DNA of 64,000 nucleotides from an uncultured Alphaproteobacteria bacterium (GTDB lineage: Bacteria; Pseudomonadota; Alphaproteobacteria; Bin95): assembly GCA_938083135.1 (NCBI GenBank), contig CALLKY010000030.1:8432-72431 (forward strand), in the 5' to 3' direction. Positions 1-33,519 of the stretch are shown piece by piece (the stretch's first letter is position 1; every line of letters starts with the position of its first letter). The notes under the pieces were generated by a model that worked only from the letters and a program-made list of their open reading frames with translations, was not told the DNA's origin and searched no databases. The position numbers and the translations under genes are program-made.

Positions 1-780
1 CTAGACGCTGTAGCACTGTATCGGGACTTCGAGGATTTGGCACCGCCTGGCCACAAAGGTGATCTTGCCCTGGCCGCGTTGTCCCGCCGACTTAAGGCGT
101 TGGACCTCCTTGATGAAGCAGATAAAATTCTCGACCACCTCGTCCGCCGCCGCCTTGATGGCGCAATCTTGGCGGACTTGGGCGGTGAGTTGGCTGACCT
201 GCGCCTTATGCGCCGGGAATGGGCGCGTGCTCTCAGCGCACTGGACGAAAGCGAGCGCGGCGAGATGGAGGCCTCTGCAGAGATTCGTGACCGCAGAATT
301 GATCTGAGGGCGCGGGCGCTGGCAGGATCCGGTAATCCCAAAGAGGCATTGGCCCTCCTGAACAATGCATCGACACTTGAGCGCCTGCATTTGAAGGCCA
401 AGTTTGCATGGCGTTCTGGCAATTGGGTTGCAGCGCGGGATGCATATCGCGGGCTCTCAGAACAGGGTGCCTTTGCGGAAGACGGCAAAAATGAAGCCGC
501 GTTGGAAGCCCAAGCTGCACTCGCTGTCCGTTGGGCTGTGTCGGCGGCCATGTTGGGTGCTGAAGACGAGTTGGCGATGATTGGCCAACGCTTCGAAGGC
601 AAGGCTAAGGACCCGAAGCTTGCCTCTGCGCTGGCTATGCTGACAACGCCAACCAGGCCACGCGGTGAAGCCATTGCTGCCGCCCGCGCCGCCATTGCTG
701 GCTTGGATACTGTCACCAAGAACATCGGTGCTTATCAAGCCGCCCAGCGAAGGTCTGATACATCCGCCAAGTCTGGCTGA
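1..780 (+). CDS. 5'-truncated helical, Ala/Leu-rich (TPR-like) hypothetical protein in the flagellar locus. The reading frame is open from base 1, so the gene starts upstream of the window.
   Basis: Frame 1 runs open from base 1 to the stop at 778-780, and the amino-acid composition is plausible. The competing minus-strand ORF (1..390) is Cys/Gln-rich and implausible. Confidence 0.4.
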   Translation, partial: LDAVALYRDFEDLAPPGHKGDLALAALSRRLKALDLLDEADKILDHLVRRRLDGAILADLGGELADLRLMRREWARALSALDESERGEMEASAEIRDRRIDLRARALAGSGNPKEALALLNNASTLERLHLKAKFAWRSGNWVAARDAYRGLSEQGAFAEDGKNEAALEAQAALAVRWAVSAAMLGAEDELAMIGQRFEGKAKDPKLASALAMLTTPTRPRGEAIAAARAAIAGLDTVTKNIGAYQAAQRRSDTSAKSG

Positions 781-984
781 TCAATAAGCCGAAACGGTGT
801 CGTATGATCTGGTGACTATGGCGTCAGTGGAGCGGAGCACTACTGTTACGCCTACACCCATATGAGCAGGTGAGGCTGCGGCGTAGGCTTTTCGCTGACA
901 CCGCAGTCCGGTGGCCGCTCTAACTAAGCGTTCGTTCAGCGCTGGGGCTTTCCCTTGTCACGGGTGCTGGCGTTTGCAGCCTCA

Positions 985-1731
985 CTAGCCGTAGGACTGC
1001 ACCAAGCTGCCCGCCACCAATCGCCAGCCATCCACCAGAACGAAGAATATCAGCTTGAATGGCAGTGATATCATCACTGGCGGCAGCATCATCATACCCA
1101 TCGACATCAAGACTGATGCGACCAGCATGTCGATGACCAGAAATGGGATGAACAATAAGAAGCCAATTTCAAAGGCACGGCGGAGTTCGCTGATCATGAA
1201 TGCCGGTGCCAGGGCGCGAAGCGGCGTTGCTTCGGGCGTTTCCGGGGTTTCTGCGTTAGACAGATCAAGGAAAAGACGGAGGTCTTCATCCCGCACATGG
1301 CGCAGCATGAACGTTCGAATTGGGCCGATTGCTTTACCGAGCGCTTCTTCTTCCGTGATCTGCTCTTCCAGGAGTGGCTGGACGGCTTCGTCGTAGATTT
1401 TCTCGAATGTCGGGGCCATCACGAAGCCTGTCAGGAACAGCGCTAAGCTAACAAGCACGATATTTGGTGGCGCCTGTTGCGCACCAAGCGCGCTGCGTAG
1501 GAACGACAGCACGACGACGATCCGCGTGAACGATGTCGCCATTACAAGGATCGACGGTGCCAAGCTCAACACCGTCATCAATGCTACGAGCTGTAAGATC
1601 CGCGCAGTTGATGAAGGCCCATCGCCGCCAATGTCAATCGATATGGATTGGGCAAGGGCAGGGGATGCTACTAAGTATGCTGCTGCAGCAAAGGAGAAAA
1701 ATGCGAGGTTTATGCGCCAAGACTTAGACAT
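985..1731 (-). CDS. fliP: Flagellar biosynthesis protein FliP (type III export apparatus).
   Basis: The ORF contains the FliP hallmark signal peptide (MSKSWRINLAFFSFAAAAYLVASPALAQ) and the conserved TM core (LVALMTVLSLAPSILVMATSFTRIVVVLSFLR...GMMMLPP). The start was chosen at the internal Met (1731); the longer 1941 ORF is an upstream extension. Confidence 0.9.
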   Translation of the reverse strand: MSKSWRINLAFFSFAAAAYLVASPALAQSISIDIGGDGPSSTARILQLVALMTVLSLAPSILVMATSFTRIVVVLSFLRSALGAQQAPPNIVLVSLALFLTGFVMAPTFEKIYDEAVQPLLEEQITEEEALGKAIGPIRTFMLRHVRDEDLRLFLDLSNAETPETPEATPLRALAPAFMISELRRAFEIGFLLFIPFLVIDMLVASVLMSMGMMMLPPVMISLPFKLIFFVLVDGWRLVAGSLVQSYG

Positions 1732-21575: not shown

Positions 21576-22333
21576 TCAGTTTGTGATCCAGCTCTGGCGC
21601 GCGGCGATGGCGACGGCTTCAGTTCGATTGGCGGCGTTCAGTGTCTTCGAAAGTTCGGCGATATGGAACTTCACTGTGCGTTCGCTGACACCAAGAATAT
21701 CTGCGATCTCACCATTCGCGCGGCCCTTGGCCATCCAGGTCAGGCATTCCTGTTGGCGGCGGGTTAGCTTGACCTGCGCAGTCTCATCTTCTCCCTCAAG
21801 GAATACAAAATCGATGATGGAGGCGGCGAATGCGCGGGCCATATGGGCGAGTTCCGGCGTCGCTGCGGCAACCTTTTCAGGCGTTTCAGGATCGCCGCCG
21901 ATGCAATAGGCATTGATGACTTGGCAGCGTAGTGGAGTATGCACAGGTAAGTTGATATCGTATTTGAATCCGAAGCGCTTCTCCAATGAATACAGCCAGC
22001 GCCGACGCCGGTTAGGCTCTTCACCGCTGCGGGCTTCCTCGGTGGTAAATGGACGGTCAAACTTGGCTGCCGCTCGTAACAGCGGATCATCCTTGTAGAA
22101 GTTGCGTGCGATGTAGAGTGCCTCAAACGCCTTCAAATGTGCAGGGCCACGAGACAGCATATAAACATCGTTGCCGACAAGTGCTTCGACGGGCTTTCGC
22201 AAGTGCGTCCAATAAACGAATCCTGCAAAACCAAACTGTTCAGCGCATATTCAAATTCGTCCGCCAATTCATCTAGGCCATCAGCGTTCTGGAGTTTGCG
22301 ATAAAAGTCATCGCCCATCTGAATTTTCTCCAT
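21576..22333 (-). pseudogene. LuxR-family autoinducer-binding-type transcriptional regulator, interrupted by a frameshift.
   Basis: The C-terminal HTH (LTRRQQECLTWMAKGRANGEIADILGVSERTVKFHIAELSKTLNAANRTEAVAIAAR) and most of the ligand-binding domain are in one frame (21576..22250). The N-terminus (MEKIQMGDDFYRKLQNADGLDELADEFEYALNS) is in another frame (22236..22333). Restoring one T in a T-run (plus-strand A-run at 22231-22238) would give a continuous ...EYALNSFGFAGFVYW... protein of about 250 aa. Confidence 0.6.
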
Positions 22334-22451: not shown

Positions 22452-23240
22452 TCAGAATGATTGGCGCAATCTTATAGAGAGAGATGTGCTCTCAACGGCT
22501 TCATCACCGACCCTTACATCGCCTTCAAAATCAAGGGCTGTGCTTGGTGCTATTTTGAACCGGACGCCGCCTAGAAGTTTGGCAGAAAGCGTATCCCTGG
22601 CTGTGCTGCCTAGCCCGGGTTCCTCTTTGAAGCTGTACCGGCCTTCGATCCCAGCCATCATGGAGATACCGCCAAGAATGGGGGCGCGATACTGCATGAG
22701 AAGTTCAGTTGCCCGGGCGCTCAAATGTTCCGTGGGCAGACCTTGAATTTCAAGCCGTGCCTCAGAGAAGTTGGCGGTCAATGTGAATTCCGCCGTGGCT
22801 TTACCAATGGGCATGAAATAGTAGGCAAACGGGCTGATCTCACCACTTTCAAGCGCCAAGTCTGCCTTGGCACCGAAAGCGCGGACATCGCCCGCGTCAT
22901 AGCTATAGGTGGCACCGAGACCCAGATAGAAGCCCGGGAAACTTGCTGGTGCAATTTGATAGGCACCATAGGCTTCAATGGACCCACCACGGGCAGAAAC
23001 TTCGGAGAAGAAGAATCCGCTGCCAAAGTCGCCGTCGGTATCCCGTCCTTCCAATACGCCACCAAAGGCGAAGTTGCCCCAGACCATATCGACGCCGATC
23101 TCTGGCCCGATGCTTTCAAGGTTAGACGGCGTGGAGCCGCCAATGACGTTGCGCTTCTCACGGTCTAGAGATGCACCTGCATAGATTTCGCCGGTAACCG
23201 GCTCACTCTTCGCTGCGAATGGCAATGCGGTTGCAAGCAA
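22452..23240 (-). CDS. Outer-membrane beta-barrel protein (OmpW/opacity/porin-like).
   Basis: The sequence shows alternating amphipathic beta-strand patterning and a C-terminal ...SLSIRLRQSF (terminal Phe). The signal-peptide-like ARNSAACALAVLLATALPFAA lies upstream of the first TTG and has no in-frame ATG. Confidence 0.55.
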   Translation of the reverse strand: MLATALPFAAKSEPVTGEIYAGASLDREKRNVIGGSTPSNLESIGPEIGVDMVWGNFAFGGVLEGRDTDGDFGSGFFFSEVSARGGSIEAYGAYQIAPASFPGFYLGLGATYSYDAGDVRAFGAKADLALESGEISPFAYYFMPIGKATAEFTLTANFSEARLEIQGLPTEHLSARATELLMQYRAPILGGISMMAGIEGRYSFKEEPGLGSTARDTLSAKLLGGVRFKIAPSTALDFEGDVRVGDEAVESTSLSIRLRQSF

Positions 23241-23413
23241 TACGGCAAGCGCGCATGCGGCTGAATTCCGGGCTTGTCCGGCAAAACAAGGGCAAAATTG
23301 GGCCAGAGTCCCCTCCGCTTCGTTGCCCGAAATTCCATAGAAATAAGCAGTTAGCCAGGAGCTGGACCAGTTGGATAGGTTGAGAACTCAACCCGGTTCG
23401 CAAGACTAAGCAA

Positions 23414-24073
23414 ATGTTAATGCGAATGCCAACATCCCAAAGCGATACCCAGGGGCGAAAATTGCCTGCCGTCTGGTTGATCTCAGTGCTTTTCGTCAGC
23501 GCGCTCACGCTCTCAACCGCACAAGCGCAGACTGAGATTGTCACGACGGCTGTGCGGGCAAATCAGTCTGAATTCATCATCCGTGACGGCATGGACGCCG
23601 GGTTTTCCGGCCGTGTTCATGTGCATTTGGCGCAAGGTGTGTGTGTTGGTTCAGATCAGCCGACGGACATGACGATCAAATCACTTACGCTGTTCGAAGC
23701 AGTTCGCGGCCGGGTTCTTGATGGTGATCAGGGCAAGGTGTTGGTGAACGCGACTGAAGCGCAGGTGAAGGAAACTGAGCGGGCGGGACAGCTTGCTGGA
23801 TCCATTTTGCAGGCCGCCTCGCAAAACAGTCTTGGTGCGTTTGGGTCTGATCGGGCGATCAATTGGTTCAATGCCAGCATTACAGACGCGCAGCTGCAGC
23901 TGACGGCTGAGCCGGTGGCCTCACTGCTGGTTAAGCCGGACGGAACGCCTGCGGCGGCTGTGTTGGCTGGCTGCTACACGACGCAGCAATTGCAGAAACT
24001 GCGCGGCCTGCTTGTCACGTCCGCACAAGCACTGACGACAGATTTGCAGTTGCCACGGATCAATCCACGTTAG
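23414..24073 (+). CDS. Secreted hypothetical protein (219 aa) with a signal peptide; first gene of the secreted cluster.
   Basis: The signal peptide KLPAVWLISVLFVSALTLSTAQA-QTE is present. The gene ends 8 nt before the next ORF. Confidence 0.45.
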   Translation: MLMRMPTSQSDTQGRKLPAVWLISVLFVSALTLSTAQAQTEIVTTAVRANQSEFIIRDGMDAGFSGRVHVHLAQGVCVGSDQPTDMTIKSLTLFEAVRGRVLDGDQGKVLVNATEAQVKETERAGQLAGSILQAASQNSLGAFGSDRAINWFNASITDAQLQLTAEPVASLLVKPDGTPAAAVLAGCYTTQQLQKLRGLLVTSAQALTTDLQLPRINPR

Positions 24074-24095
24074 CCGCGCGATGCCTTGGGGGAGA

Positions 24096-27000
24096 ATGTC
24101 TATGAAATACTTCGGTATTGCAGTCACTGCCGCTCTCTTCGGAGCATTGCTTGGGGCACCTGCAGCGGGCCAAGGGCTAACGAAGGATGAGCGCGCAAGG
24201 GCGCTGAAGCTCACGAGCGAGCTTGAAGCGCGCTTAGACCAGAGCTGCCAGCCTGTTGTTGATCAGATCCGCTCAATTCTGGATGATTTTCATACGTTCC
24301 AAGTTGCCCGCAGCACGATTGCGAACGGCTACCAGGCTGAAATTCAGGCAACCCAAGCCGAGCTTGCCAGACCATTCCTGCAAATTGAGGCTGAGTATGA
24401 AGCATTTAAGCGGCGGGCGCTGGATGCAGAGATTTTGCTCGGCGAGGACGTCGCGAGTGAAATTCATGATCCCGATCTTGATGAATTCAATATCTTCGGC
24501 GTTCCAATGGAGGGGTTGGCACTGACGGCATCTTCGATTGAGAAGGTCGAGGAGATGACGCCAGAGTTCAATCAGCTCAGGCTGCAATACGACGCCCTTG
24601 TCGCTGAACATCGCGAGCGTGCCAAACGCATGGCAAAGCGCTTTAACGATAATTTGATCAGCGGGTTCCGCTTTCTGGATCAAACTGCTGAACGCATTCA
24701 GGCGCGGAAAGATGCGCTGGTCGCACTTTTTGCAGATCAAAGCGGGCCATTCGCTCATTGTCTTGGTTATTCAGGCTCAACGAAAGATGAGATTGGCGCG
24801 CTTGTTGGCATTCCTGCACTGGTCACGCCGATTTCAAAAGTGCTCGGCCTCAATGTGCAAGCGCCTGAACCGGTGGAGAACATTGGTGAGCGCCTTGTGC
24901 AGCTGGGCATCCTGGAACCACCACCAGAACCCAAGGTCGAGATCAAGCGGAATGGTGAGGAATATCTAGAACTCTTTGCTGGCCTTTTGGAGGCCCGTAA
25001 TGAGGGCGATAGCGCCATGATCAAGGCCGAGGCGCTGACGGCCGTGACCCATGTATTGGAGACTGCGAAGGCCTTCACTTACGGGATGTTCCTAGGGCCG
25101 CTCGAGCCATTTACCCGTGATGACCTGACCGTCATGCAGGCTTTCTATCAATCGGGCAAAGACATGACCGTCGGCGCAGTCCAAGGGGCTGTCGATTCCT
25201 TTGCGGTCGTCATCGAAAATGAAACACAGCGCGGTGCGGAACTCTACACCGCACTCGGCGGTGGGGACCTGACAGCGGCAGCCGCGTTCGCTGATTTTGG
25301 TGGCGCGATGCAGGCCGTCGTCGCGACGACTAGGATCACGCTGAATACCTTGAAATCGAATGCGGCACCTAAGCGGTCCGATCATGTGAGTGGGATCGTT
25401 GGACTTGTGGCTTATGTCGATGAATTACGCTTTCACAACGAAGATTTGAAACTGTTGGCGGAGCAAACCGCAGACAGCGTCGCCAAATTCAATCGTGCTG
25501 TTGATACATGGATGGCTGTTTTCCAAATCGCCCTGACGTTTGAAGGGGGCAAGGGGACGGTAAAGAACGCCAAAAATCTGGGCGGGAAAGTCAAACAGGA
25601 TGGCGCTGTCGTCGGCTCGTTCAGCTTTCTGGTCGAGCGCGCCAAGGCTTCATATGACCAAGCCAACATCCGGTTTGAGCAAGGCAAAGCGATTGCGCGC
25701 AAAGGCAAGGAGTCCATCGTTGCAGCGAAGGATTTGCTATCCCGCAAAAAGCTGGGCGAGGACGTGCCGGCCGATGCAGAGCTTATTGCGACCAAGGTTC
25801 TGGATGAGCAGCAGCGGATAGAGGAAGCGCTGGACGCAGAGACTTCCATCTCAGAAAGCACGGCATTCCTGAACCGTCAGATAGATGCGTCTGTGGACTT
25901 CAGTGGTGCCAAGTTCCTTGATGAAGTGACCAATGCGCGGCCAACGCCCGATCAACCAGATGGTGGGGCAGCAAAAACCCGCATTGTTGAACCCGACCCG
26001 CCACCACCACCGCCGCCGCCACCTCCTCCGCCAAGACGCACCGCGCGCGATCTGGGCGTGGTTGAGGGCGCAAAGCCCGGCAAGCCAGATTTACCGCCTG
26101 TCCTCAGCGCTGAAGAAGTCGGCCCGAAAGTGACGCCCATTGAAATCGCGCCGCAGGGTGAAACCTTCGCACTGAATGACGGCAGGCAGATTGATGTGGA
26201 GATCGGCGGGCAATCGCTTTCAGGCAATGTCAGCGATGTCTTTCTGGGCGACGATGTCGTCATAAAACTGGTGAAAGACACTGGCGACGTTGCAACGGTG
26301 AATACGCCAAGGACAGCCGACACCATCAACCGGATTGAGACAGCGGCAGCCACCTTGAACGATTTGGACGCGGCCTTGGATGGCGTGGGCGTTGGTGCGT
26401 CGCGCTTCCTCGGCGACAAAAAAATCAAAGTAAAGGTAAAAGTTGTTGGCCCGGACGGGGAGGTCACCTTCCGCAAAGAAGAGCGCACGGCGCAAGTGTT
26501 CGAAAAATTTGAGACGAAATCGAAGAACAATGAAATTGTTCAAGGCTTTGGCGATGATATTTTGCGCCAACAAGGCGCTTTCACGCCCGGTCAGGTACAG
26601 GCGATCGTTCTGGGCAAGATATTATTGACGGATTTCGGCGTCGTGTTGCGCGACTTCAAGCCGGATAACTTTGGTCTGGTGAAAATCGGCGAGCCTGACT
26701 CGTGGAAAATCCATATCACAGATGTCGATATGGTCCGTCGATTAGGTGATACCCGCACCGCGAAAGGCAGGCTCAAAGGCGATACATCGGCAGATTTGCG
26801 CAAGATTGCGGATTTCCGAATTCGGGGCAAAGATTCTCCTGCTACCAAGATCAATGACGTCCGCGTTGATCTGGACGGGATTCAGCGTGTTGAAGGCAAT
26901 GTCGGCCTGACAAAAGATGCGCTCGACAAAGGTATTGCGACACCTGATGGCGATGGCCGCTTCACGATTAATCCTGACGATAAGCTGGCAAATGAGCTCC

Positions 27001-27512
27001 TGGACAAATTCGTCGAGGATCCTGACGCCGCCATCCAAGACATCTTTGGCAATGATAAAGCCTCTGCCGACGCCATCCAGCAGAAGCGCGCCATAATCCA
27101 AAAGCAGGGTGAAGAACGCGCGCAGAAGCTGCGTGAAGAGCAGTTGACGTTGGAAAATGCGGAGCGTGCTGAAGCCGAAGCAAAAGCCAATGAGGCAGAG
27201 ATTGGGAACAGCATCGATACCGAATTGCCGAAGATTAAGTTTGCCACTGATGGCGACGATGGCGGGAGCAGTAGTGGTGGTGGCTTCAGTCTTGACGACT
27301 TTGATACCGATGGAGAAATCAGCAGCAATCAGACATTTGAAACGCCGAAGAAAGACACATTCTTACTGGATTCCGATAACGGCAGTGATGGCTCTGAAAC
27401 GCCGCTTGATACAAATTTTGGCACGAATGAACCCAATTTTGGTGCCATGTTTGGAGATTTGTTCAAGAACAAGGGCGATGGCGACAGCCCGCCTACAGGT
27501 GGCGGGAGTTGA
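24096..27512 (+). CDS. Large Sec-signal protein (about 1140 aa): helical N-terminal half, poly-Pro linker, protein-kinase-like domain, acidic disordered tail.
   Basis: Signal peptide MKYFGIAVTAALFGALLGAPAAG-QG. Twelve consecutive Pro codons at 25998-26033. Kinase-fold motifs: Gly-loop EIGGQSLSGNV, beta3 Lys in DDVVIKLVK, catalytic loop VLRDFKPDNFGLV, and a DFG-like KIHITDVDM. Confidence 0.7.
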   Translation: MSMKYFGIAVTAALFGALLGAPAAGQGLTKDERARALKLTSELEARLDQSCQPVVDQIRSILDDFHTFQVARSTIANGYQAEIQATQAELARPFLQIEAEYEAFKRRALDAEILLGEDVASEIHDPDLDEFNIFGVPMEGLALTASSIEKVEEMTPEFNQLRLQYDALVAEHRERAKRMAKRFNDNLISGFRFLDQTAERIQARKDALVALFADQSGPFAHCLGYSGSTKDEIGALVGIPALVTPISKVLGLNVQAPEPVENIGERLVQLGILEPPPEPKVEIKRNGEEYLELFAGLLEARNEGDSAMIKAEALTAVTHVLETAKAFTYGMFLGPLEPFTRDDLTVMQAFYQSGKDMTVGAVQGAVDSFAVVIENETQRGAELYTALGGGDLTAAAAFADFGGAMQAVVATTRITLNTLKSNAAPKRSDHVSGIVGLVAYVDELRFHNEDLKLLAEQTADSVAKFNRAVDTWMAVFQIALTFEGGKGTVKNAKNLGGKVKQDGAVVGSFSFLVERAKASYDQANIRFEQGKAIARKGKESIVAAKDLLSRKKLGEDVPADAELIATKVLDEQQRIEEALDAETSISESTAFLNRQIDASVDFSGAKFLDEVTNARPTPDQPDGGAAKTRIVEPDPPPPPPPPPPPPRRTARDLGVVEGAKPGKPDLPPVLSAEEVGPKVTPIEIAPQGETFALNDGRQIDVEIGGQSLSGNVSDVFLGDDVVIKLVKDTGDVATVNTPRTADTINRIETAAATLNDLDAALDGVGVGASRFLGDKKIKVKVKVVGPDGEVTFRKEERTAQVFEKFETKSKNNEIVQGFGDDILRQQGAFTPGQVQAIVLGKILLTDFGVVLRDFKPDNFGLVKIGEPDSWKIHITDVDMVRRLGDTRTAKGRLKGDTSADLRKIADFRIRGKDSPATKINDVRVDLDGIQRVEGNVGLTKDALDKGIATPDGDGRFTINPDDKLANELLDKFVEDPDAAIQDIFGNDKASADAIQQKRAIIQKQGEERAQKLREEQLTLENAERAEAEAKANEAEIGNSIDTELPKIKFATDGDDGGSSSGGGFSLDDFDTDGEISSNQTFETPKKDTFLLDSDNGSDGSETPLDTNFGTNEPNFGAMFGDLFKNKGDGDSPPTGGGS
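25998..26033 (+). repeat. (CCN)12 trinucleotide tract encoding poly-proline.
   Basis: ccg cca cca cca ccg ccg ccg cca cct cct ccg cca, in frame with the 1143-aa ORF. Confidence 0.9.
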
Positions 27513-27517
27513 GCCGC

Positions 27518-29998
27518 ATGCAAGGTCTAAGAATCAGGCTCCTGCTGATTGCCGCGGTCGCAGGGATGATCTTCACAGTGCCGCAAGCGCGCGCGCAAAT
27601 TCTGCGAAGTGATGCCGTTGAGCAAAGGAATAGCAACGCAGCTGCCGGGTATACCCGGGCCCAACTGCGCCTCTACATCGAACGCCTAAAGCGCATCAAA
27701 CGAGCGATTGGCGACACATCCCCGATTGATGCTGGCCAGTTCGTAGACCTACCGCGCCCGCGCGATATTTTGCTTGAAGTACGCCCCCCTGAAACGAAGC
27801 GCAAGCTATCGCCGTTGCAGGGTGGTGGTCAGTTCGTTTTGGGCAGTCTTGCGGCAAAGCTCACCGTGACAGATTTCGTCGCGATCGACCGGCTGAACCG
27901 GCTGGTGGGTGCGAACCAGACCTATATTGCCAATGGTCGACGCGCCGCAATTCTACTGGATCTGCCAACAAAACTGCAATTGACGGTGAGTGGGGTGGCC
28001 CAGCAGGTAACGCCTGAACCCTGCACTTTTTCGCGGATCGAAAACGGTTTGCGCAAAACAAAGCGGGGGCGGAGGGATGTGATTGGGCCGAAACAGATAT
28101 TCACATACCTGCCGGGCGAACTTGCCAATGCCGCTACGATCACAAGTGGGAATGGCATCACGCTGACGGACGATGGGTTTTACGTGGGCCAGGCCGTGAC
28201 GGGCCAAGTTGAGTCCGTAGTCACGGTTGCTGGTGGGTCAGTGTTGAATCGAACGCTGCGCCGGGGCTGCACAGAGCAGCTACCAGAGCGCCAGGATTTC
28301 AAGCGCGAGTTTAAGCTAGGCGGGATCGCGCTGGCCCATGTCTCCCTCGCTGGATTGCCGCGTAAAGATGGAGCGCTGGGGGTTGCGCAGGATAACGCTA
28401 CTGATTTCTTTGTACGGCGTGGTGGTAGCCAAACGCCTGCTCTTGAGCTTGCCCCGCAAATGGAGGCGACGCTTGGCGAGAGCAGCGTGATCATGCCAAT
28501 CCCGCGCAGTAAGTTTCGCGTCGTCAGCACGACAGGAGGCTATACCAGCACCAGAAACTCTGCCGGGTTCATCGTCACCTCGCCTGCAACAGCCGCTACT
28601 GGGGCCATCACCATCCAGACAATTGATGGTGAGTTGCCTGCGGCTGTGCACCGTCTGACCACGAATGAGATGTTTCCTCTGGCGCTCAGCACAAAGCGTG
28701 TGCGGGTGGGGGAGCAGGTTAGTGCTGCAGTCGCAATCGTTGGCGATGCTGATATGAGCCAGTACGTCGCCATCTGGGAGGCGGGCGGCCTTGCGCCCAA
28801 AACAATCGAAACCGGGTTCGAGAAGTCTGGCGCTGGATGGGCAAGCGTTGCGGAATTCACAGCGGAAAGCGGCATCCTGCAGGAGTTCAAGGATGCGCTG
28901 CAGTTGGCTAAGGACACCCGCCAGAGTGATGATCCAGAACCTGCGCCCGGCGTGGGTCTGGCAAAGAAACGCGCCAATATCCTGGTAAAGGTTGTACGCA
29001 AGAGCGACCGGAAATCGATGATCGGGACCAGCGGAACTGTTGAGGTTGTGCCGGAGATTACAGCCGTACGGATCACAGGTGGATATACCGGCGAGCGCTT
29101 TGGCAAGACCGTAGACTTGTTCAACCCGCCTGGCGAAGTGCCAGCGGCTTCGTTCAGGGCGGAAATTGATATTGCTGCTGGGGCCGAGAAGCTGACTTTT
29201 ACCAGTCAGGATGCCCGGATTGGGCGCTTGGTTCGCCTGCAGGCAACGCGGGGGGCACCCTTTACGATACGGGACCGGACGGTCGCTATCGCTAATCCAT
29301 CTGGCGCACCAATCGGTGCGGCGGCTGTCCGCGGCGTCATCCGCCTTGCAGATGCGTTGGGCATTGCGGGATTGGTCCTTCCAGAAGGGCAAGACACGCT
29401 GTTCAGTGACCCGGTTCGGGTGACAGTAAACCGCCTGACCCAAGCGCATTTTGTGACGCCTGGCGGTAAGCGTGAACTCACTGTCGGCGTGTTGGGCCCG
29501 GCGGACATGGGGCGCTACCAAGCTGTTTGGGCGCTGACCGGCAGTCAGGAAACCTCGAAGCCATTTAGCCAGGATAAAGGCGGGTTTATCGCCAAGCACA
29601 CGATTTCTGATTTCCGCTTGGTTCCCTCAGTGACAGACGTTCGGCTGGGAGGTGTCGTTGTTGGCCGCATGGGTGGTGCTGCCGGCGGTGCTGAGCGTGA
29701 CGCCAACGTAGCGGCAATTGTGGCGCTGGAGGCACCGGCGTTAATCCAGGGTAAACCGCTGAAAGTCCGGGCCCGGCTCGCCAATGTACCAAAGCCGCTT
29801 TGGCCAAGGCTGTATTGCGCGTGGTCGGTGGACAGCATTTACGGAAAGTTGGCAGAGCCTGAGTCTGCGGCACTGATGAACTCGACGTTCAATGGGGTGT
29901 GCGAGAATACGTTCACCCTGCGCGAAACCCTCGCGACGATTGATGAAACGCCGAATTTGGAGGTGGAGCTGCGCATCCGCCAGGGAACGCTAAAATGA
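27518..29998 (+). CDS. Secreted hypothetical protein (about 826 aa) with an internal repeated domain.
   Basis: ATG 27518 with a GGCGGGAG RBS. Signal peptide LRIRLLLIAAVAGMIFTVPQARA-Q. The two repeats are VAIVGDADMSQYVAIWEAGG... and VGVLGPADMGRYQAVWALTG.... Confidence 0.6.
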   Translation: MQGLRIRLLLIAAVAGMIFTVPQARAQILRSDAVEQRNSNAAAGYTRAQLRLYIERLKRIKRAIGDTSPIDAGQFVDLPRPRDILLEVRPPETKRKLSPLQGGGQFVLGSLAAKLTVTDFVAIDRLNRLVGANQTYIANGRRAAILLDLPTKLQLTVSGVAQQVTPEPCTFSRIENGLRKTKRGRRDVIGPKQIFTYLPGELANAATITSGNGITLTDDGFYVGQAVTGQVESVVTVAGGSVLNRTLRRGCTEQLPERQDFKREFKLGGIALAHVSLAGLPRKDGALGVAQDNATDFFVRRGGSQTPALELAPQMEATLGESSVIMPIPRSKFRVVSTTGGYTSTRNSAGFIVTSPATAATGAITIQTIDGELPAAVHRLTTNEMFPLALSTKRVRVGEQVSAAVAIVGDADMSQYVAIWEAGGLAPKTIETGFEKSGAGWASVAEFTAESGILQEFKDALQLAKDTRQSDDPEPAPGVGLAKKRANILVKVVRKSDRKSMIGTSGTVEVVPEITAVRITGGYTGERFGKTVDLFNPPGEVPAASFRAEIDIAAGAEKLTFTSQDARIGRLVRLQATRGAPFTIRDRTVAIANPSGAPIGAAAVRGVIRLADALGIAGLVLPEGQDTLFSDPVRVTVNRLTQAHFVTPGGKRELTVGVLGPADMGRYQAVWALTGSQETSKPFSQDKGGFIAKHTISDFRLVPSVTDVRLGGVVVGRMGGAAGGAERDANVAAIVALEAPALIQGKPLKVRARLANVPKPLWPRLYCAWSVDSIYGKLAEPESAALMNSTFNGVCENTFTLRETLATIDETPNLEVELRIRQGTLK

Positions 29999-30765
29999 GG
30001 CGTGCGCTTGGAATTTTTGCCATCGCTGCATTGGCCTATGCGGCACCTGTTGCGGCTGACATCACCATTGGCCGAGATATTCTGCGATCCGGCGATGTCT
30101 CGCCCTCCAGCAAGCTTTTTGAATTGCTGCTGAAGAGTGAGGACGCACGCAACCAACTTCAGATCCAAAATGAAAAGCGGGCAGCGCTTAAGAACAAACG
30201 TTTCAAGCGCGTGGTGAAGAAGGTCCAGGTTAAGGACGTTATTAAGCGGGCCGGCAACAACCCGCTGAACCAACAGCAGCCGCTGAACAACACCACACTT
30301 GCCAATGGCGAAACGGTTCTGGTCGCGGCAGATGACTTGAACCAAGGCGGCGCTGGCGGCGGGGCCGGGCTGGCAGCATGTATTGGCCAGCAGGTTTTTG
30401 CAGCACCGAGCCCAACAGCACCGCCAGAGATCGTGTTCGTCAATGTCCGCGTTGATCCAGCGACACTTGATTGCAGTGTGGCGGGTGGTCAAAGCGCTGA
30501 CGGGGACTTCTTGATCTTCCAATTCGGCACGAATGGCGGCGTTGTTGATGCGATCCTCGTATTCGCGGACGTGCTCCAGCCAGATTGGATACTGATCAGC
30601 CCACCCAACCGGTTCCTGCAGTTTGTAGCGCCCAATACAACACTGACACTGACCTTCGAGAACCGGTCCGCTGACAACAGCGTCACCATCAGAACGACAG
30701 TGCTGGTGCAAACGGGTGGCCTGACAACAACAAGCATCACGATCCTGAATATGGAGGTGCTCTGA
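29995..30765 (+). CDS. Secreted hypothetical protein (256 aa).
   Basis: Signal peptide MRRALGIFAIAALAYAAPVAA-D. The start ATG overlaps the upstream stop (ATGA). Confidence 0.55.
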   Translation: MRRALGIFAIAALAYAAPVAADITIGRDILRSGDVSPSSKLFELLLKSEDARNQLQIQNEKRAALKNKRFKRVVKKVQVKDVIKRAGNNPLNQQQPLNNTTLANGETVLVAADDLNQGGAGGGAGLAACIGQQVFAAPSPTAPPEIVFVNVRVDPATLDCSVAGGQSADGDFLIFQFGTNGGVVDAILVFADVLQPDWILISPPNRFLQFVAPNTTLTLTFENRSADNSVTIRTTVLVQTGGLTTTSITILNMEVL

Positions 30766-31274
30766 TGATTGCGCGCAGTTCTCTGTTCATTTTGGTGGCG
30801 TTAACTGTCGCCATCATTGCCTCTACTGCAGACGCACAGAAGGTCCGCATCTTCAAGAAGATCGCTGCCCCAGAAACACCCCCAACCGGTACGGAATTGA
30901 TTGAGGAGATGCTGCCCCCTGATCCCGGGGTGGCGGGACGGGCAATCACTGATGCGCTGGAAAATTGGAACAGCGGAGACTTCAGCGGCAACATCTCAGA
31001 GGACTTCCAGGACAAATCCCGCCTGCTGGATAACTTCGCGAATGATGTGCCGCTTGACGCCGAACTTCGCGTTACGGCCATGCGGAATTATCGCCCTATG
31101 CAGCAGTTCGGGCGTGTCGGCGACAGTGGCAATGTCGAAATCACGACGCGGATCCAAGTGACCGCAGAGACCGAAATTCAATTCAATGACCCGCAGCGCG
31201 GCTTCAGGCGACTGCTGGGAACCAATGATTTCGTCGTCGATGTGACGGAAGAATTGGTTCCGATTCCGAACTAG
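30765..31274 (+). CDS. Secreted hypothetical protein (169 aa).
   Basis: Signal peptide MIARSSLFILVALTVAIIASTADA-Q. The start overlaps the upstream stop (TGATG). Confidence 0.5.
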   Translation: MIARSSLFILVALTVAIIASTADAQKVRIFKKIAAPETPPTGTELIEEMLPPDPGVAGRAITDALENWNSGDFSGNISEDFQDKSRLLDNFANDVPLDAELRVTAMRNYRPMQQFGRVGDSGNVEITTRIQVTAETEIQFNDPQRGFRRLLGTNDFVVDVTEELVPIPN

Positions 31275-31284
31275 GACAGGCGCT

Positions 31285-33519
31285 GTGCTGAACAAACGTA
31301 TCCTCAGTGCCGCTGTATCGGCGAGCGCTCTCCTGCTTGGATCTAGCGGCATTGCTTTGGCCCAGGACGCCACCGATGAACCGTTCATGGGCGCATGGCG
31401 GGTTGATGGAACGCTCACTACGAAGTTTGAGAACTATTCCGTCGGCGGCAATGACGCGAACTCGCCCTTTAAGGACACAGGAGAGCAATTTCACATCGAG
31501 TTCGATATCCGGGCTGAACAAGATATCTCAGCATTCGAGACTGTGCGGATGAGTGCGGCAGGCGTGGCTATTAACGAGTCCGCCTATCGTGCGCCACAGC
31601 GAGGTTTCATCTTGGAGCGGGCCGGGTTCGAATGGGAGAAAGGCGACGCAACGGTTCCATTCGTAGTCGAGGGCGGCAACACATTCGCTTTCTTCTCGCA
31701 GCAAACGGTGCAGCGGAACCTCGTTGGTGCCCATGTGGAACTGCAGCCGCAAATTGTTGGTCAGGACCAGGGCCTATCAGTCATCGCGTTCGCGGGGGAA
31801 AGTGCGAAGAACCATCGGGCCATCGATTTTGGCGATGACGTGTTCACAGGTTTGTCTGCATTGTTCTTCGATCCGGAATATGGGTCTTTCAGCCTCAATG
31901 GAATCGCGAATTTCCGGGATGAGCAAGCGGGCCTTCGTCGGCGCGACCAGAATGTCGTGACAGCAGCGTGGGCACATACATTGCTGCCAAGTGATGGCCA
32001 TAGCCTTGATGTATATTTTGAAGCCGGTGTGTTGTCAGGCGATATTGTCAACCGGGCAGGGGCTGTCGTCGCAGAAACGGATTTTGGCGGTGCGCTGGAA
32101 TTAGATGGTCGTATCCGTGAAGGCGGTTGGAGTTATGGCGCGCGGTTTGAGCGCTTTGGCGAAGACTATGCGCCGAACGGTGCCTCTGTCACGAAAGACC
32201 GGATCACGGCGGAAGGCCGGGTCGGTAAGCGTTTCGAGGATGGCTTGTCTATACGCGGGCGGTCTCAGTTTTTCCAAGACGCAGTTGATAGCGGCAATGC
32301 TACGGATACGTTGACCTACGGCCTGGATTTTGCGGGGCCAACGAAGTTCATTGGCTTGGATAAGGGGAGCTTTTCCTGGAACAACTTCCTACAGAACGTA
32401 GAAAATGAGCTTTCGACAACAGAGCGCGATACTTATTCCAGCAACTTCAATTTCACCCATCCCCTGGACGACCTGACGACGGGCCGCATTGGTGCCCAAT
32501 ATCGCCTGATTGATGACCATGTGGGGGCGGCTGATACGGACACTGCGCAAGTGAATGTAGCGTTAGACCGACGGTTCGTGATTGATGATTGGGGCGTGGA
32601 AGGCTCAGGCTCCCTTGGCTTTACGTATCGGGAGAACGGGTCTGAAGGACAGTTGACTGCGCGCGATATGACGCCGAATGCGGGCATTAATTTCAATTGG
32701 GGCGCACATACATTTGCAGCTGACTATAGGGCACAGATTCAGAACCGGCGGCAGGGTGGTCAAGATCTTGTCAGCCATCGCGTTGGCCTGAACTGGTCTT
32801 GGAGCGACGGACCGCATCGATTTGCCTTTGATGGCAGCTTTGATGGCCGGGAGCCGCGTGGCTTGGAAGATACAAGGGCGTATAAGGTCGGCTTTACGTA
32901 CACTCTGAGCTTTAACAAGGCCGCAGGGCAGTCCTTCAGCGAAGGCCTGGGCGAAGGGCCAAACCTCGTGCCGCTAGACCCCGATGCGCCGAAGGGGGAT
33001 GTGCGCTTTACGCCAGCGTCGGACATGATGGCGTTGACGCCAGACAAGCCGATGACAGAAACGGTCCAAAGCCTTGAGGCCGGCGGGATTACTGGCGGCG
33101 TCGATATCGCTGGCGTCACGGTCTATGAGACGGCCGCACTCCTGCCGCAGATCAGCGAACGCCAGCGCTTGGCCTTGGTTTCAAAGAACGGCGGGCTTCG
33201 GACCGCTGCGCTTATCATCGATGTTGCTGAGCCCAATGATGCGGAGCGCCTTTTCACGCGGGTCGAAGGTGAGTTGGCGCGCCGGTATGGGCAGCCATCA
33301 GACTCGTTCTCTGAGGGCGACTTTACGGGTGATGTCGCGACGAAGATCGGCAATGGCGAGTTGATCCGAGCGACTGAATGGCGTGGGCCGGGCGGGCCAT
33401 TACGGTTGTTCATTCCCCGCCGCCTTGATGGGCTGGTCCGCCTGGAGATTCAACGGGCTGCCACCTTCCAGCCAATCACCGAAAACAGGGTCGGGGCCGG
33501 CGTTGATACGGTCAGGTAA
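31285..33519 (+). CDS. Secreted/outer-membrane beta-rich protein (744 aa), possibly a large beta-barrel.
   Basis: Signal peptide MLNKRILSAAVSASALLLGSSGIALA-QD. There are many alternating aromatic/Gly strand-like segments (YKVGFTYTLSF, GSLGFTYREN, GINFNWGAHTF). Confidence 0.55.
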   Translation: MLNKRILSAAVSASALLLGSSGIALAQDATDEPFMGAWRVDGTLTTKFENYSVGGNDANSPFKDTGEQFHIEFDIRAEQDISAFETVRMSAAGVAINESAYRAPQRGFILERAGFEWEKGDATVPFVVEGGNTFAFFSQQTVQRNLVGAHVELQPQIVGQDQGLSVIAFAGESAKNHRAIDFGDDVFTGLSALFFDPEYGSFSLNGIANFRDEQAGLRRRDQNVVTAAWAHTLLPSDGHSLDVYFEAGVLSGDIVNRAGAVVAETDFGGALELDGRIREGGWSYGARFERFGEDYAPNGASVTKDRITAEGRVGKRFEDGLSIRGRSQFFQDAVDSGNATDTLTYGLDFAGPTKFIGLDKGSFSWNNFLQNVENELSTTERDTYSSNFNFTHPLDDLTTGRIGAQYRLIDDHVGAADTDTAQVNVALDRRFVIDDWGVEGSGSLGFTYRENGSEGQLTARDMTPNAGINFNWGAHTFAADYRAQIQNRRQGGQDLVSHRVGLNWSWSDGPHRFAFDGSFDGREPRGLEDTRAYKVGFTYTLSFNKAAGQSFSEGLGEGPNLVPLDPDAPKGDVRFTPASDMMALTPDKPMTETVQSLEAGGITGGVDIAGVTVYETAALLPQISERQRLALVSKNGGLRTAALIIDVAEPNDAERLFTRVEGELARRYGQPSDSFSEGDFTGDVATKIGNGELIRATEWRGPGGPLRLFIPRRLDGLVRLEIQRAATFQPITENRVGAGVDTVR

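Follow-up and report, generated by a model that had tools for sequence, protein, structure and literature searches.

A divergent protein-kinase-like domain in a putatively exported protein from an uncultured alphaproteobacterium

Kinase-like proteins inside and outside the cytoplasm

YrbL and WaaY, two bacterial kinase-like proteins, are single-domain proteins of ~200 to 230 amino acids that have no signal peptides. Other kinase-like enzymes work in less familiar places. CotH and Fam20C/FJ are enzymes with atypical motifs that have signal peptides or act on matrix or coat proteins; Fam20C works in the ATP-supplied lumen of the Golgi and CotH in the cytoplasm of the mother cell, neither of them in a Gram-negative envelope. 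NleH/OspG and HopBF1 are small substrates of type III secretion without Sec signals. To our knowledge, phosphorylation by a kinase fold outside the Gram-negative cytoplasm is essentially undocumented, because ATP is presumed absent from the periplasm. The subject of this article is a 1143-amino acid protein that combines protein-kinase motifs in its C-terminal part with a signal-peptide-like N terminus. It is encoded in 64,000 nucleotides of DNA (the window) from an uncultured Alphaproteobacteria bacterium (GenBank assembly GCA_938083135.1, contig CALLKY010000030.1, positions 8,432 to 72,431).

We think it likely that residues ~691 to 975 of the window protein form a genuine, if divergent, protein-kinase-like (PKL) domain, catalytically competent and residing in an exported protein encoded by an envelope operon. 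The families against which it has to be judged are already organized. YrbL-PhoP_reg, WaaY and FTA2 belong to the PKinase clan, as do CotH and Fam20C, and the minimal effector kinases NleH/OspG and HopBF1 are listed as PKL-like (PMC9758233).

From four motifs to a family

An earlier note, made by reading this DNA, had claimed a eukaryotic-like protein-kinase fold inside a Sec-exported protein. The four kinase motifs on which it drew are all present in the open reading frame (ORF), each where the note had placed it (Table 1). D881 lies 18 residues beyond N863 and 23 beyond D858. The pattern RD.KP.N occurs once in the six frames of the window, against 0.026 occurrences expected.

Searches with the single sequence gave a first indication. 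With phmmer against the PDB, residues 852 to 894 align to residues 122 to 164 of casein kinase 1 (CK1), from the catalytic loop to the DFG strand, at E=0.004 with the whole protein and 7e-4 with the domain; BLASTP against human CK1 delta recovers the same match over 42 residues. A 93-amino acid fragment of the domain scores 10.9 bits (E=0.3) against the Pfam Pkinase model PF00069, whose cut-off is 31.7. Evidence of this kind is marginal, since the screening of many windows could yield such matches by chance, and so independent evidence was needed. Word-indexed searches had only the near-identical fragments P0001 and P0006 among the matches listed, whether the query was the full-length protein, the domain or an alignment of three sequences, and a genome scan with the window protein as query gave no match.

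What the word-indexed searches missed came to light in an exhaustive HMMER search of 1.84 billion representative proteins. Of its five matches, three are pieces of this protein or of a sister protein and two are distant relatives: P0004 (1019 amino acids, E=3e-9), on contig L009 with 68% GC, and P0005 (521 amino acids, E=6e-4), on contig L014 with 39% GC. The N-terminal domain (N-domain) of P0004 matches window residues 57 to 380 (BLASTP, 5e-14), and a separate BLASTP segment (E=1e-5) joins its residues 644 to 830 to window residues 682 to 906, the region of the motifs. Those motifs read LGEGTFKKVY ... VVQVID ... WTDPNPGNF ... KITDMDN in P0004. On L014, the gene for the P0005 N-domain is followed directly by an ORF with AEGTMKAVYKY ... 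YVIKVFK ... VVTDPNIGNF ... LLDLDG. The same N-domain and the same set of motifs are therefore paired in three lineages, the window being the third at 57% GC. The two parts on L014 (L014:131-2472) stand in different frames, ~150 nucleotides apart, which would mean either that they are separate neighboring genes or that this short contig contains a frameshift.

Aligning the three kinase-like domains of the window protein, P0004 and L014 (alignment A4) brings out what the family keeps. G715, V727, E808, D858, N863, F864, D881 and D883 are invariant. The DFG motif, D-V-D in the window protein, is D-x-D across the family. The catalytic loop had been read as HRDLKPxN-like, with Asp, Lys and Asn retained. 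Its Asp and Asn are indeed invariant, and its Lys is present in the window protein (LRDFKPDN), but that lysine is not a family feature: K860 of RDFKPDN is Asn in both relatives (TDPNPGN and TDPNIGN). The CK1-like look of the loop seems, from this alignment, partly specific to the window lineage and would not imply CK1 ancestry. Membership of the CK1 family was considered and rejected; the likeness spans 43 residues only, and the shared K860 is not kept.

The alignment also made it possible to search with a profile. Against the PDB, the A4 profile found 86 sequences at E<=10, and the best 60 are all protein kinases, aligned in one register; the matches include CASK (E=0.0017), MSK1, TBK1, CDPK, Eph receptors, CK1 and COQ8B. 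These alignments cover alphaE, the catalytic loop and DFG, and some extend back to beta3 and alphaC. When A4 was compared by hhalign with protein kinase A (PKA), CDK2, CK1 delta and PknB, the match extended from the Gly-loop as far as the DFG strand (138 columns), with a probability of 94.3% and E=1e-7, giving the PKA equivalences of Table 1 together with E808 = PKA E121. The real profile scored 47 to 58, against 15.9 for a reversed profile and at most 17.6 for 30 column shuffles. Both halves contribute. The N-lobe half alone, from which the catalytic loop is missing, keeps the register of Gly-loop and VAIK lysine (score 21.7, E=0.016; 30 shuffles, at most 16.4), and the C-terminal half by itself reaches 33.5 (E=2e-4).

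Among curated families the best signal is that of P0004 to YrbL-PhoP_reg (PF10707), which covers model positions 7 to 151 of 185 with 24.6 bits (E=2.3e-5) against a gathering score of 31.5; in the same Pfam scans neither the window protein nor the L014 domain matched this model. P0004 has a further weak match to WaaY (E=0.14) and the L014 domain one to FTA2 (E=0.039); RfaY appeared in the family scans at E=0.09. The best weak Pfam match of each member (Pkinase, YrbL-PhoP_reg or FTA2) thus falls in the PKinase clan. The CotH and Fam20C models gave no match at E<=10 in Pfam scans of the window, P0004 and L014 domains.

Taken together, the hhalign result, the PDB profile matches and the match of P0004 to YrbL support homology of the putatively exported protein to kinases, as the note had proposed. 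The note had also named coincidental motif order as what would overturn its claim; the profile search and the shuffled controls favor real kinase homology. "Eukaryotic-like" was an overstatement, with no Pfam kinase model reaching its threshold, and "kinase-like" is the part that stands. In its sequence the domain has what marks the PKL superfamily (CL0016), namely a Gly-loop and beta3 Lys, D-x-x-x-x-N with a metal-binding Asp, and profile similarity. It does not have what marks a Hanks-type kinase (the PF00069 gathering score, DFG, APE, the alphaF Asp and C-lobe subdomains VIII to XI), and it falls outside the family models of YrbL-PhoP_reg, CotH and Fam20C. As far as sequence can tell, this would be a kinase-like domain with D-x-D and a short, non-canonical C-lobe that has retained its Gly-loop, K729, the hinge Glu E808 and the D858/N863/D881 triad. 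The family appears to be previously undescribed, the periplasmic PKLs of an oral-microbiome preprint lying outside our comparison.

A probable export signal in each of three lineages

The second half of the claim was that the protein starts with a cleavable signal peptide, and this too holds up: the N terminus is signal-peptide-like, with MKYFGIAVTAALFGALLGAPAAG preceding a predicted cut before QG. Its layout is that of a type I signal, MK followed by YFGIAVTAALFGALLGA and then PAAG, with cleavage before Q. The mean Kyte-Doolittle hydropathy over 19 residues from residue 11 is 1.83; no other segment is strongly hydrophobic, apart from a marginal peak at residues 238 to 239. The ORF as numbered here probably begins a little too early. 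The ATG at 24102 (M8) is preceded at 7 nucleotides by the Shine-Dalgarno sequence GGGGGAG, gene callers report 1136 amino acids on identical metagenome contigs, and M8 is the likely true start.

The signal is kept in the sister lineage, in a protein ~86% identical (P0006, ...APTAA before a cut ahead of QV; also P0002). P0004 has a signal-like N terminus of its own, SRRAWLRLVAFAVVLAGRLTHPALG. The in-frame sequence upstream on L014, ...FIFSAFFIFLLTKNALTSC, is lipobox-like and ends in LTSC, where it runs off the contig. Signal-type N termini are found in all three lineages and in every partner in the operon, which supports the view that the window protein is exported through a Sec-type signal. 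The start of P0004 (L009:859-980), ...ASRRAWLRLVAFAVVLAGRLTHPALG, is Tat-like (twin-arginine) with a basic residue in the c-region. Such a signal would mean export of P0004 already folded, possibly with nucleotide bound.

Layout of the protein

The window has counterparts among metagenome contigs with 99.9% identity; on two of them (L005 and L006) the kinase-like gene is identical at the nucleotide level, and a fragment on L001 differs by one substitution, in the tail. Table 1 gives the features of the gene and its surroundings.

Table 1. Features of the kinase-like gene and its neighborhood, in window coordinates; residue numbers count from the first ATG of the ORF
Feature	Nucleotides	Residues	Strand	Remarks
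LuxR-family regulator (GerE helix-turn-helix + autoinducer-binding domain)	21576-22202		-	Adjoins island
262-aa ORF	22452-23240		-	Divergent; weak autotransporter beta-domain match; decays with island in L015
219-aa operon gene	23414-24073		+	Upstream; predicted signal peptide; without family match
Kinase-like ORF	24081-27512		+	1143 aa from first ATG; probable real start ATG 24102 (M8), giving 1136 aa
Signal peptide MKYFGIAVTAALFGALLGAPAAG	24102-24170		+	Predicted cleavage before Q31; hydropathy, by inspection
N-terminal family-specific domain	24222-25940	~48-620	+	Predicted helical; BLASTP/phmmer matches to P0004, P0005; alignment A7
Pro-rich linker	25941-26150		+	Includes 12-proline run, aa 640-651, nt 25998-26033
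Protein-kinase-like domain	26151-27005	~691-975	+	Kinase-aligned core aa 704-889
Gly-loop motif EIGGQSLSGNV	26199-26231	707-717	+	
Gly-rich loop GGQSLSGNVSDV	26205-26240		+	G715 = PKA G52, V720 = PKA V57 (hhalign)
beta3 Lys motif DDVVIKLVK	26250-26276	724-732	+	
beta3 (VAIK) lysine	26265-26267	K729	+	= PKA K72 (hhalign)
Catalytic-loop motif VLRDFKPDNFGLV	26643-26681	855-867	+	
Catalytic loop RDFKPDN	26649-26669		+	D858 = PKA D166, N863 = PKA N171; K860 in window lineage only
DFG-position motif KIHITDVDM	26706-26732	876-884	+	
TDVDM at DFG position	26718-26732		+	D881 = PKA D184; D883 invariant; family signature D-x-D
Charged segment, predicted helical or coiled-coil	27006-27215	976-1045	+	Composition; helices in low-confidence AlphaFold secondary structure
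Acidic Ser/Thr/Gly-rich tail	27216-27509	1046-1143	+	pI 4.05; 21 S/T, 21 D/E
829-aa operon gene	27509-29998		+	Predicted signal peptide; start overlaps kinase-like stop by 4 nt
256-aa operon gene	29995-30765		+	Predicted signal peptide; similar-size gene at same position in L011
169-aa operon gene	30765-31274		+	Predicted signal peptide; 174-aa gene at same position in L011
744-aa operon gene	31285-33519		+	Predicted signal peptide; putative outer-membrane beta-barrel + C-terminal soluble domain; best-conserved component

The N-domain has its own invariant motifs across the three lineages (alignment A7): FGxP at residues 139 to 142, F-x-HCLG at residues 226 to 229 and ETAKxF...G...PLE from residue 327 onward. 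A PDB profile search and a Pfam scan gave no informative match for it. The whole protein contains just two cysteines, C56 (24246-24248) and the one in F-x-H-C-L-G (24756-24767). All three lineages keep the latter, which could form a disulfide or serve in catalysis or ligand binding. The poly-Pro run of the linker is missing from P0004 and is for that reason taken to be specific to the window lineage. At the other end of the protein, the acidic, disordered tail rich in Gly, Ser, Thr and Asp contains FSLDDFDTDG, and P0004 ends similarly, in ...SALDTDFVF. The two may represent a common short docking or substrate motif, and to judge by its composition the tail as a whole could be a substrate or docking tail.

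From what we can read in these sequences, the family is a very rare, unannotated PKL that combines a D-x-D signature, a new N-domain (FGxP, F-x-HCLG), predicted export signals and a conserved operon.

An operon of putatively exported proteins

The kinase-like gene lies in a cluster of seven genes (22452-33519), one of 262 codons on the minus strand and, on the plus strand, a run of six encoding proteins of 219, 1143, 829, 256, 169 and 744 amino acids. All seven products are signal-like at their N termini. The junctions of the six are tight: in order, a 7-nucleotide gap, overlaps of 4, 4 and 1 nucleotides, and a 10-nucleotide gap. Scans of the window proteins gave no significant Pfam, NCBIfam or PADLOC match for the products of the cluster, which looks like an undescribed envelope module; homologues of the operon partners, scanned with Pfam, likewise yielded no significant match. 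An anti-phage defense system was also considered, and rejected for want of a PADLOC match.

The operon is conserved in L009, where the gene order is 209-1019-1152-165-748 amino acids. A single L009 protein of 1152 residues corresponds to two window proteins, its N-terminal and middle parts to the 829-residue one (BLASTP, 7e-16) and its C-terminal part to the 256-residue one (6e-6). The 169-residue protein matches its 165-residue counterpart at 7e-28 and the 744-residue protein its 748-residue counterpart at 3e-86. At the position of the 219-residue gene L009 has a 209-residue gene, and BLAST shows no similarity between the two. Further afield, a Syntrophorhabdaceae metagenome-assembled genome (MAG; contig L011) encodes a 737-residue homologue of the 744-residue protein, 32% identical, preceded in the same order by genes for ~246 and 174 residues; an Alphaproteobacteria MAG has a homologue with 94% identity, from which the host can be judged an alphaproteobacterium. 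Both MAG contigs are too short to reach the position of the kinase-like gene. The evidence that the 744-residue protein is a barrel is weak, consisting of a match to the outer-membrane-protein model TIGR03016 and, for the L009 homologue, a match to Porin_4 (E=1.3e-3); a PDB profile search with the 744-residue protein was uninformative.

One position in the 829-codon gene is variable. At 29243-29249 the window has seven G against eight in the 99.9%-identical contigs L005 and L006, where the gene is split into 592 and 213 codons. Both halves match one continuous L009 protein, and it is therefore probably the unbroken frame that functions. Phase variation could explain the difference, as could an error in assembly.

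The sister lineage shows what becomes of the cluster when it is lost. A 143-kb contig from it (L015, ~83 to 87% DNA identity) lacks 8 kb of the window (25019-33091), and at the site of the deletion (L015:8300-12600) there is an IS3-family transposase (HTH_Tnp_1 + rve). What remains of the 262-, 219- and 1143-residue genes is frameshifted, and of the 744-residue gene there is a C-terminal remnant only. The flanks are syntenic, with a LuxR-type regulator and NMO on one side and DJ-1 and argG on the other. Loss beside an insertion sequence (IS) element between syntenic flanks marks the cluster as an accessory island, and the joint decay of its genes fits a joint function. The LuxR-family regulator, encoded on the strand opposite to the operon, persists in the sister lineage, from which the island is gone; it may control the cluster by quorum sensing.

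What the protein might do

If the domain is active, the protein would be a phosphotransferase in the cell envelope or beyond and the enzymatic component of the operon module. We picture a signal peptide, a helical N-domain of ~570 residues, a Pro-rich linker, the kinase-like module, a coiled-coil and an acidic Ser/Thr-rich tail. D858 would be the catalytic aspartate, with N863 and D881 as the metal-binding Asn and Asp. Nucleotide would serve as donor. The protein might modify its partners, its own acidic tail or, in view of the affinity to YrbL and WaaY, a glycan of the envelope. How a donor might be had outside the cytoplasm is a matter for speculation: the protein might be exported further, into another cell; it might use scavenged extracellular nucleotide; or, for P0004 only, it might be loaded before Tat export.

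Several things weigh against the preferred reading of an active PKL domain in an exported protein. The family comprises three usable sequences only, so that "invariant" describes a small sample, and within it the beta3 lysine K729, Lys in the window protein and L014, is Gln in P0004, with a conserved alphaC Glu not identifiable in A4. In hhalign and in the PDB alignments the similarity to kinases stops at the DFG position, with no C-lobe match, no APE and no alphaF Asp. The window protein and its domain stay below the threshold of every Pfam and NCBIfam kinase model. AlphaFold2, given shallow input, produced poor models (mean predicted local distance difference test score, 37, and predicted TM-score, 0.19, with one sequence; 35 and 0.28 with two rows), and Foldseek with the unfolded two-row model returned noise (TM ~0.1). 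The four kinase sequences used for hhalign (alignment A6) were entered by hand, the PDB profile matches being independent of them, and inspection and hydropathy were the only grounds for assigning the signal peptide. Last, the periplasm is not known to offer ATP, which makes activity there problematic.

Some of these points are what one would expect of a pseudokinase or nucleotide-binding scaffold, a kinase fold that performs no phosphotransfer and acts as a structural or ligand-sensing module of an envelope complex. The Gln in P0004, the change from DFG to D-x-D, the unconserved catalytic-loop lysine and the missing alphaC Glu, APE and recognizable C-lobe all fit, as does the predicted site outside the cytoplasm, where ATP is scarce. 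Yet D858, N863, D881 and the key glycine of the Gly-loop are invariant across very divergent lineages, whereas inactive pseudokinases have usually lost at least one of the three catalytic residues. Even the Gln in P0004 may be no obstacle, as lysines in its Gly-loop (TFKKVY) could replace the beta3 Lys in the manner of WNK. We consider a pseudokinase unlikely. The note had left the choice between an effector kinase, an extracytoplasmic kinase and a pseudokinase scaffold; an inactive scaffold is disfavored by the invariant D/N/D triad, which does not, however, settle that choice.

A secreted effector or toxin kinase would cross the outer membrane, possibly by way of the 744-residue barrel, and act in the cytoplasm of a host or competitor, where the problem of ATP would be solved. 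The catalytic loop is nearest to that of eukaryotic CK1, the 12-proline run and acidic disordered tail are typical of host-interacting proteins, the island is accessory and was lost beside an IS element in the sister lineage, and a LuxR-type regulator lies adjacent. Two of these attractions fade on inspection of the family, which keeps neither the CK1-like lysine nor the poly-Pro run. Pfam, NCBIfam and PADLOC scans show no known secretion-system component in the operon, no uptake or translocation domain was recognized, and a Syntrophorhabdaceae MAG and metagenomes with no evident link to a host also contain part of the cluster. An effector is, in our estimation, an improbable answer.

The third candidate is a kinase of the YrbL/WaaY/Kdo type for small molecules or glycans, whose substrate would be a polysaccharide or lipid of the envelope and not a protein. 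YrbL-PhoP_reg, WaaY and RfaY are the only family-level signals in Pfam and NCBIfam, the D-P-N-x-G-N loop of the relatives lacks the Ser/Thr-kinase lysine, as in small-molecule kinases, and the C-lobe is short. All of those matches are below threshold, however, family scans found no glycosyltransferase or polysaccharide-export genes in the operon, and the known kinases of the lipopolysaccharide core work at the cytoplasmic face and have no signal peptides. This makes a glycan kinase quite unlikely. These first three alternatives differ from our preferred reading, of an active PKL in an exported protein, only in activity, in site of action or in substrate.

A chance ordering of kinase-like motifs in an unrelated fold could draw on the marginal single-sequence E-values (0.004 to 7e-4), on the random matches that many-window screening meets and on unfolded models that give no confirmation in three dimensions, but it is very improbable and largely refuted already, as motif order and spacing are kept in two homologues found independently through the N-domain, the best PDB matches of the family profile are kinases only, and hhalign at 94% has clean shuffled and reversed controls, with the N-lobe alone in register.

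We return, then, to a divergent PKL domain in a putatively exported protein, and the residues retained suggest that the family is probably catalytically active. More tentatively, and here we would put the chances as rather low, the operon could be a new envelope machine of which the only recognizable enzyme is an active exported kinase. It might be a system for extracytoplasmic phosphorylation, which would need a supply of nucleotide or another phosphate donor outside the cytoplasm. Or it might be a new route for exporting effectors across the outer membrane, in which the 744-residue barrel and the uncharacterized periplasmic partners would deliver a kinase effector to other cells.

Comparison with known kinase-like systems

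Kinase-like enzymes are among the best mapped of superfamilies, yet this family escapes every curated model. Its assignment as PKL is solid and its context unusual; its three-dimensional fold, activity, localization, substrate and function are inferred, and the family is known from metagenomes only. Should the protein be active in the envelope, or be exported further, it would offer an entry point to extracytoplasmic phosphorylation in Gram-negative bacteria and to the role of a six-gene envelope module. Even as a pseudokinase scaffold it would represent a new kinase-like family, marked by D-x-D and by the new domain that accompanies it.

CK1 is its nearest match by single sequence, sharing the "RD.KPDNF" loop through to the DFG strand and a long, CK1-like beta7-beta8 spacing. 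Unlike CK1, it has an unconserved K860, DVD for DFG and no CK1 C-lobe, and the match is limited to 43 residues. With CotH and Fam20C/FJ the likeness is one of concept, that of a kinase meant for a compartment other than the cytosol, with no match in sequence; the window motifs are nearer than those of CotH and Fam20C to the canonical order of Gly-loop, VAIK, D-x-x-x-x-N and D. NleH/OspG and HopBF1 share with the window domain a reduced kinase fold, a truncated C-lobe and delivery outside the producer. None of them is among the PDB matches listed for the protein or the family profile, and the window protein differs from them in its Sec signal, in its large additional domain and in having its own conserved operon. 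YrbL-PhoP_reg and WaaY/RfaY give the best family-level signal, in scores below the gathering thresholds and with no match for the window protein itself. They have in common with this domain a compact core, a D-x-x-x-x-N loop and a bacterial origin, and the catalytic loops of the relatives, like those of YrbL and WaaY, are without the protein-kinase lysine. Unlike YrbL and WaaY, the window domain carries D-x-D and forms the C-terminal part of a putatively exported, multidomain protein of more than 1000 residues.

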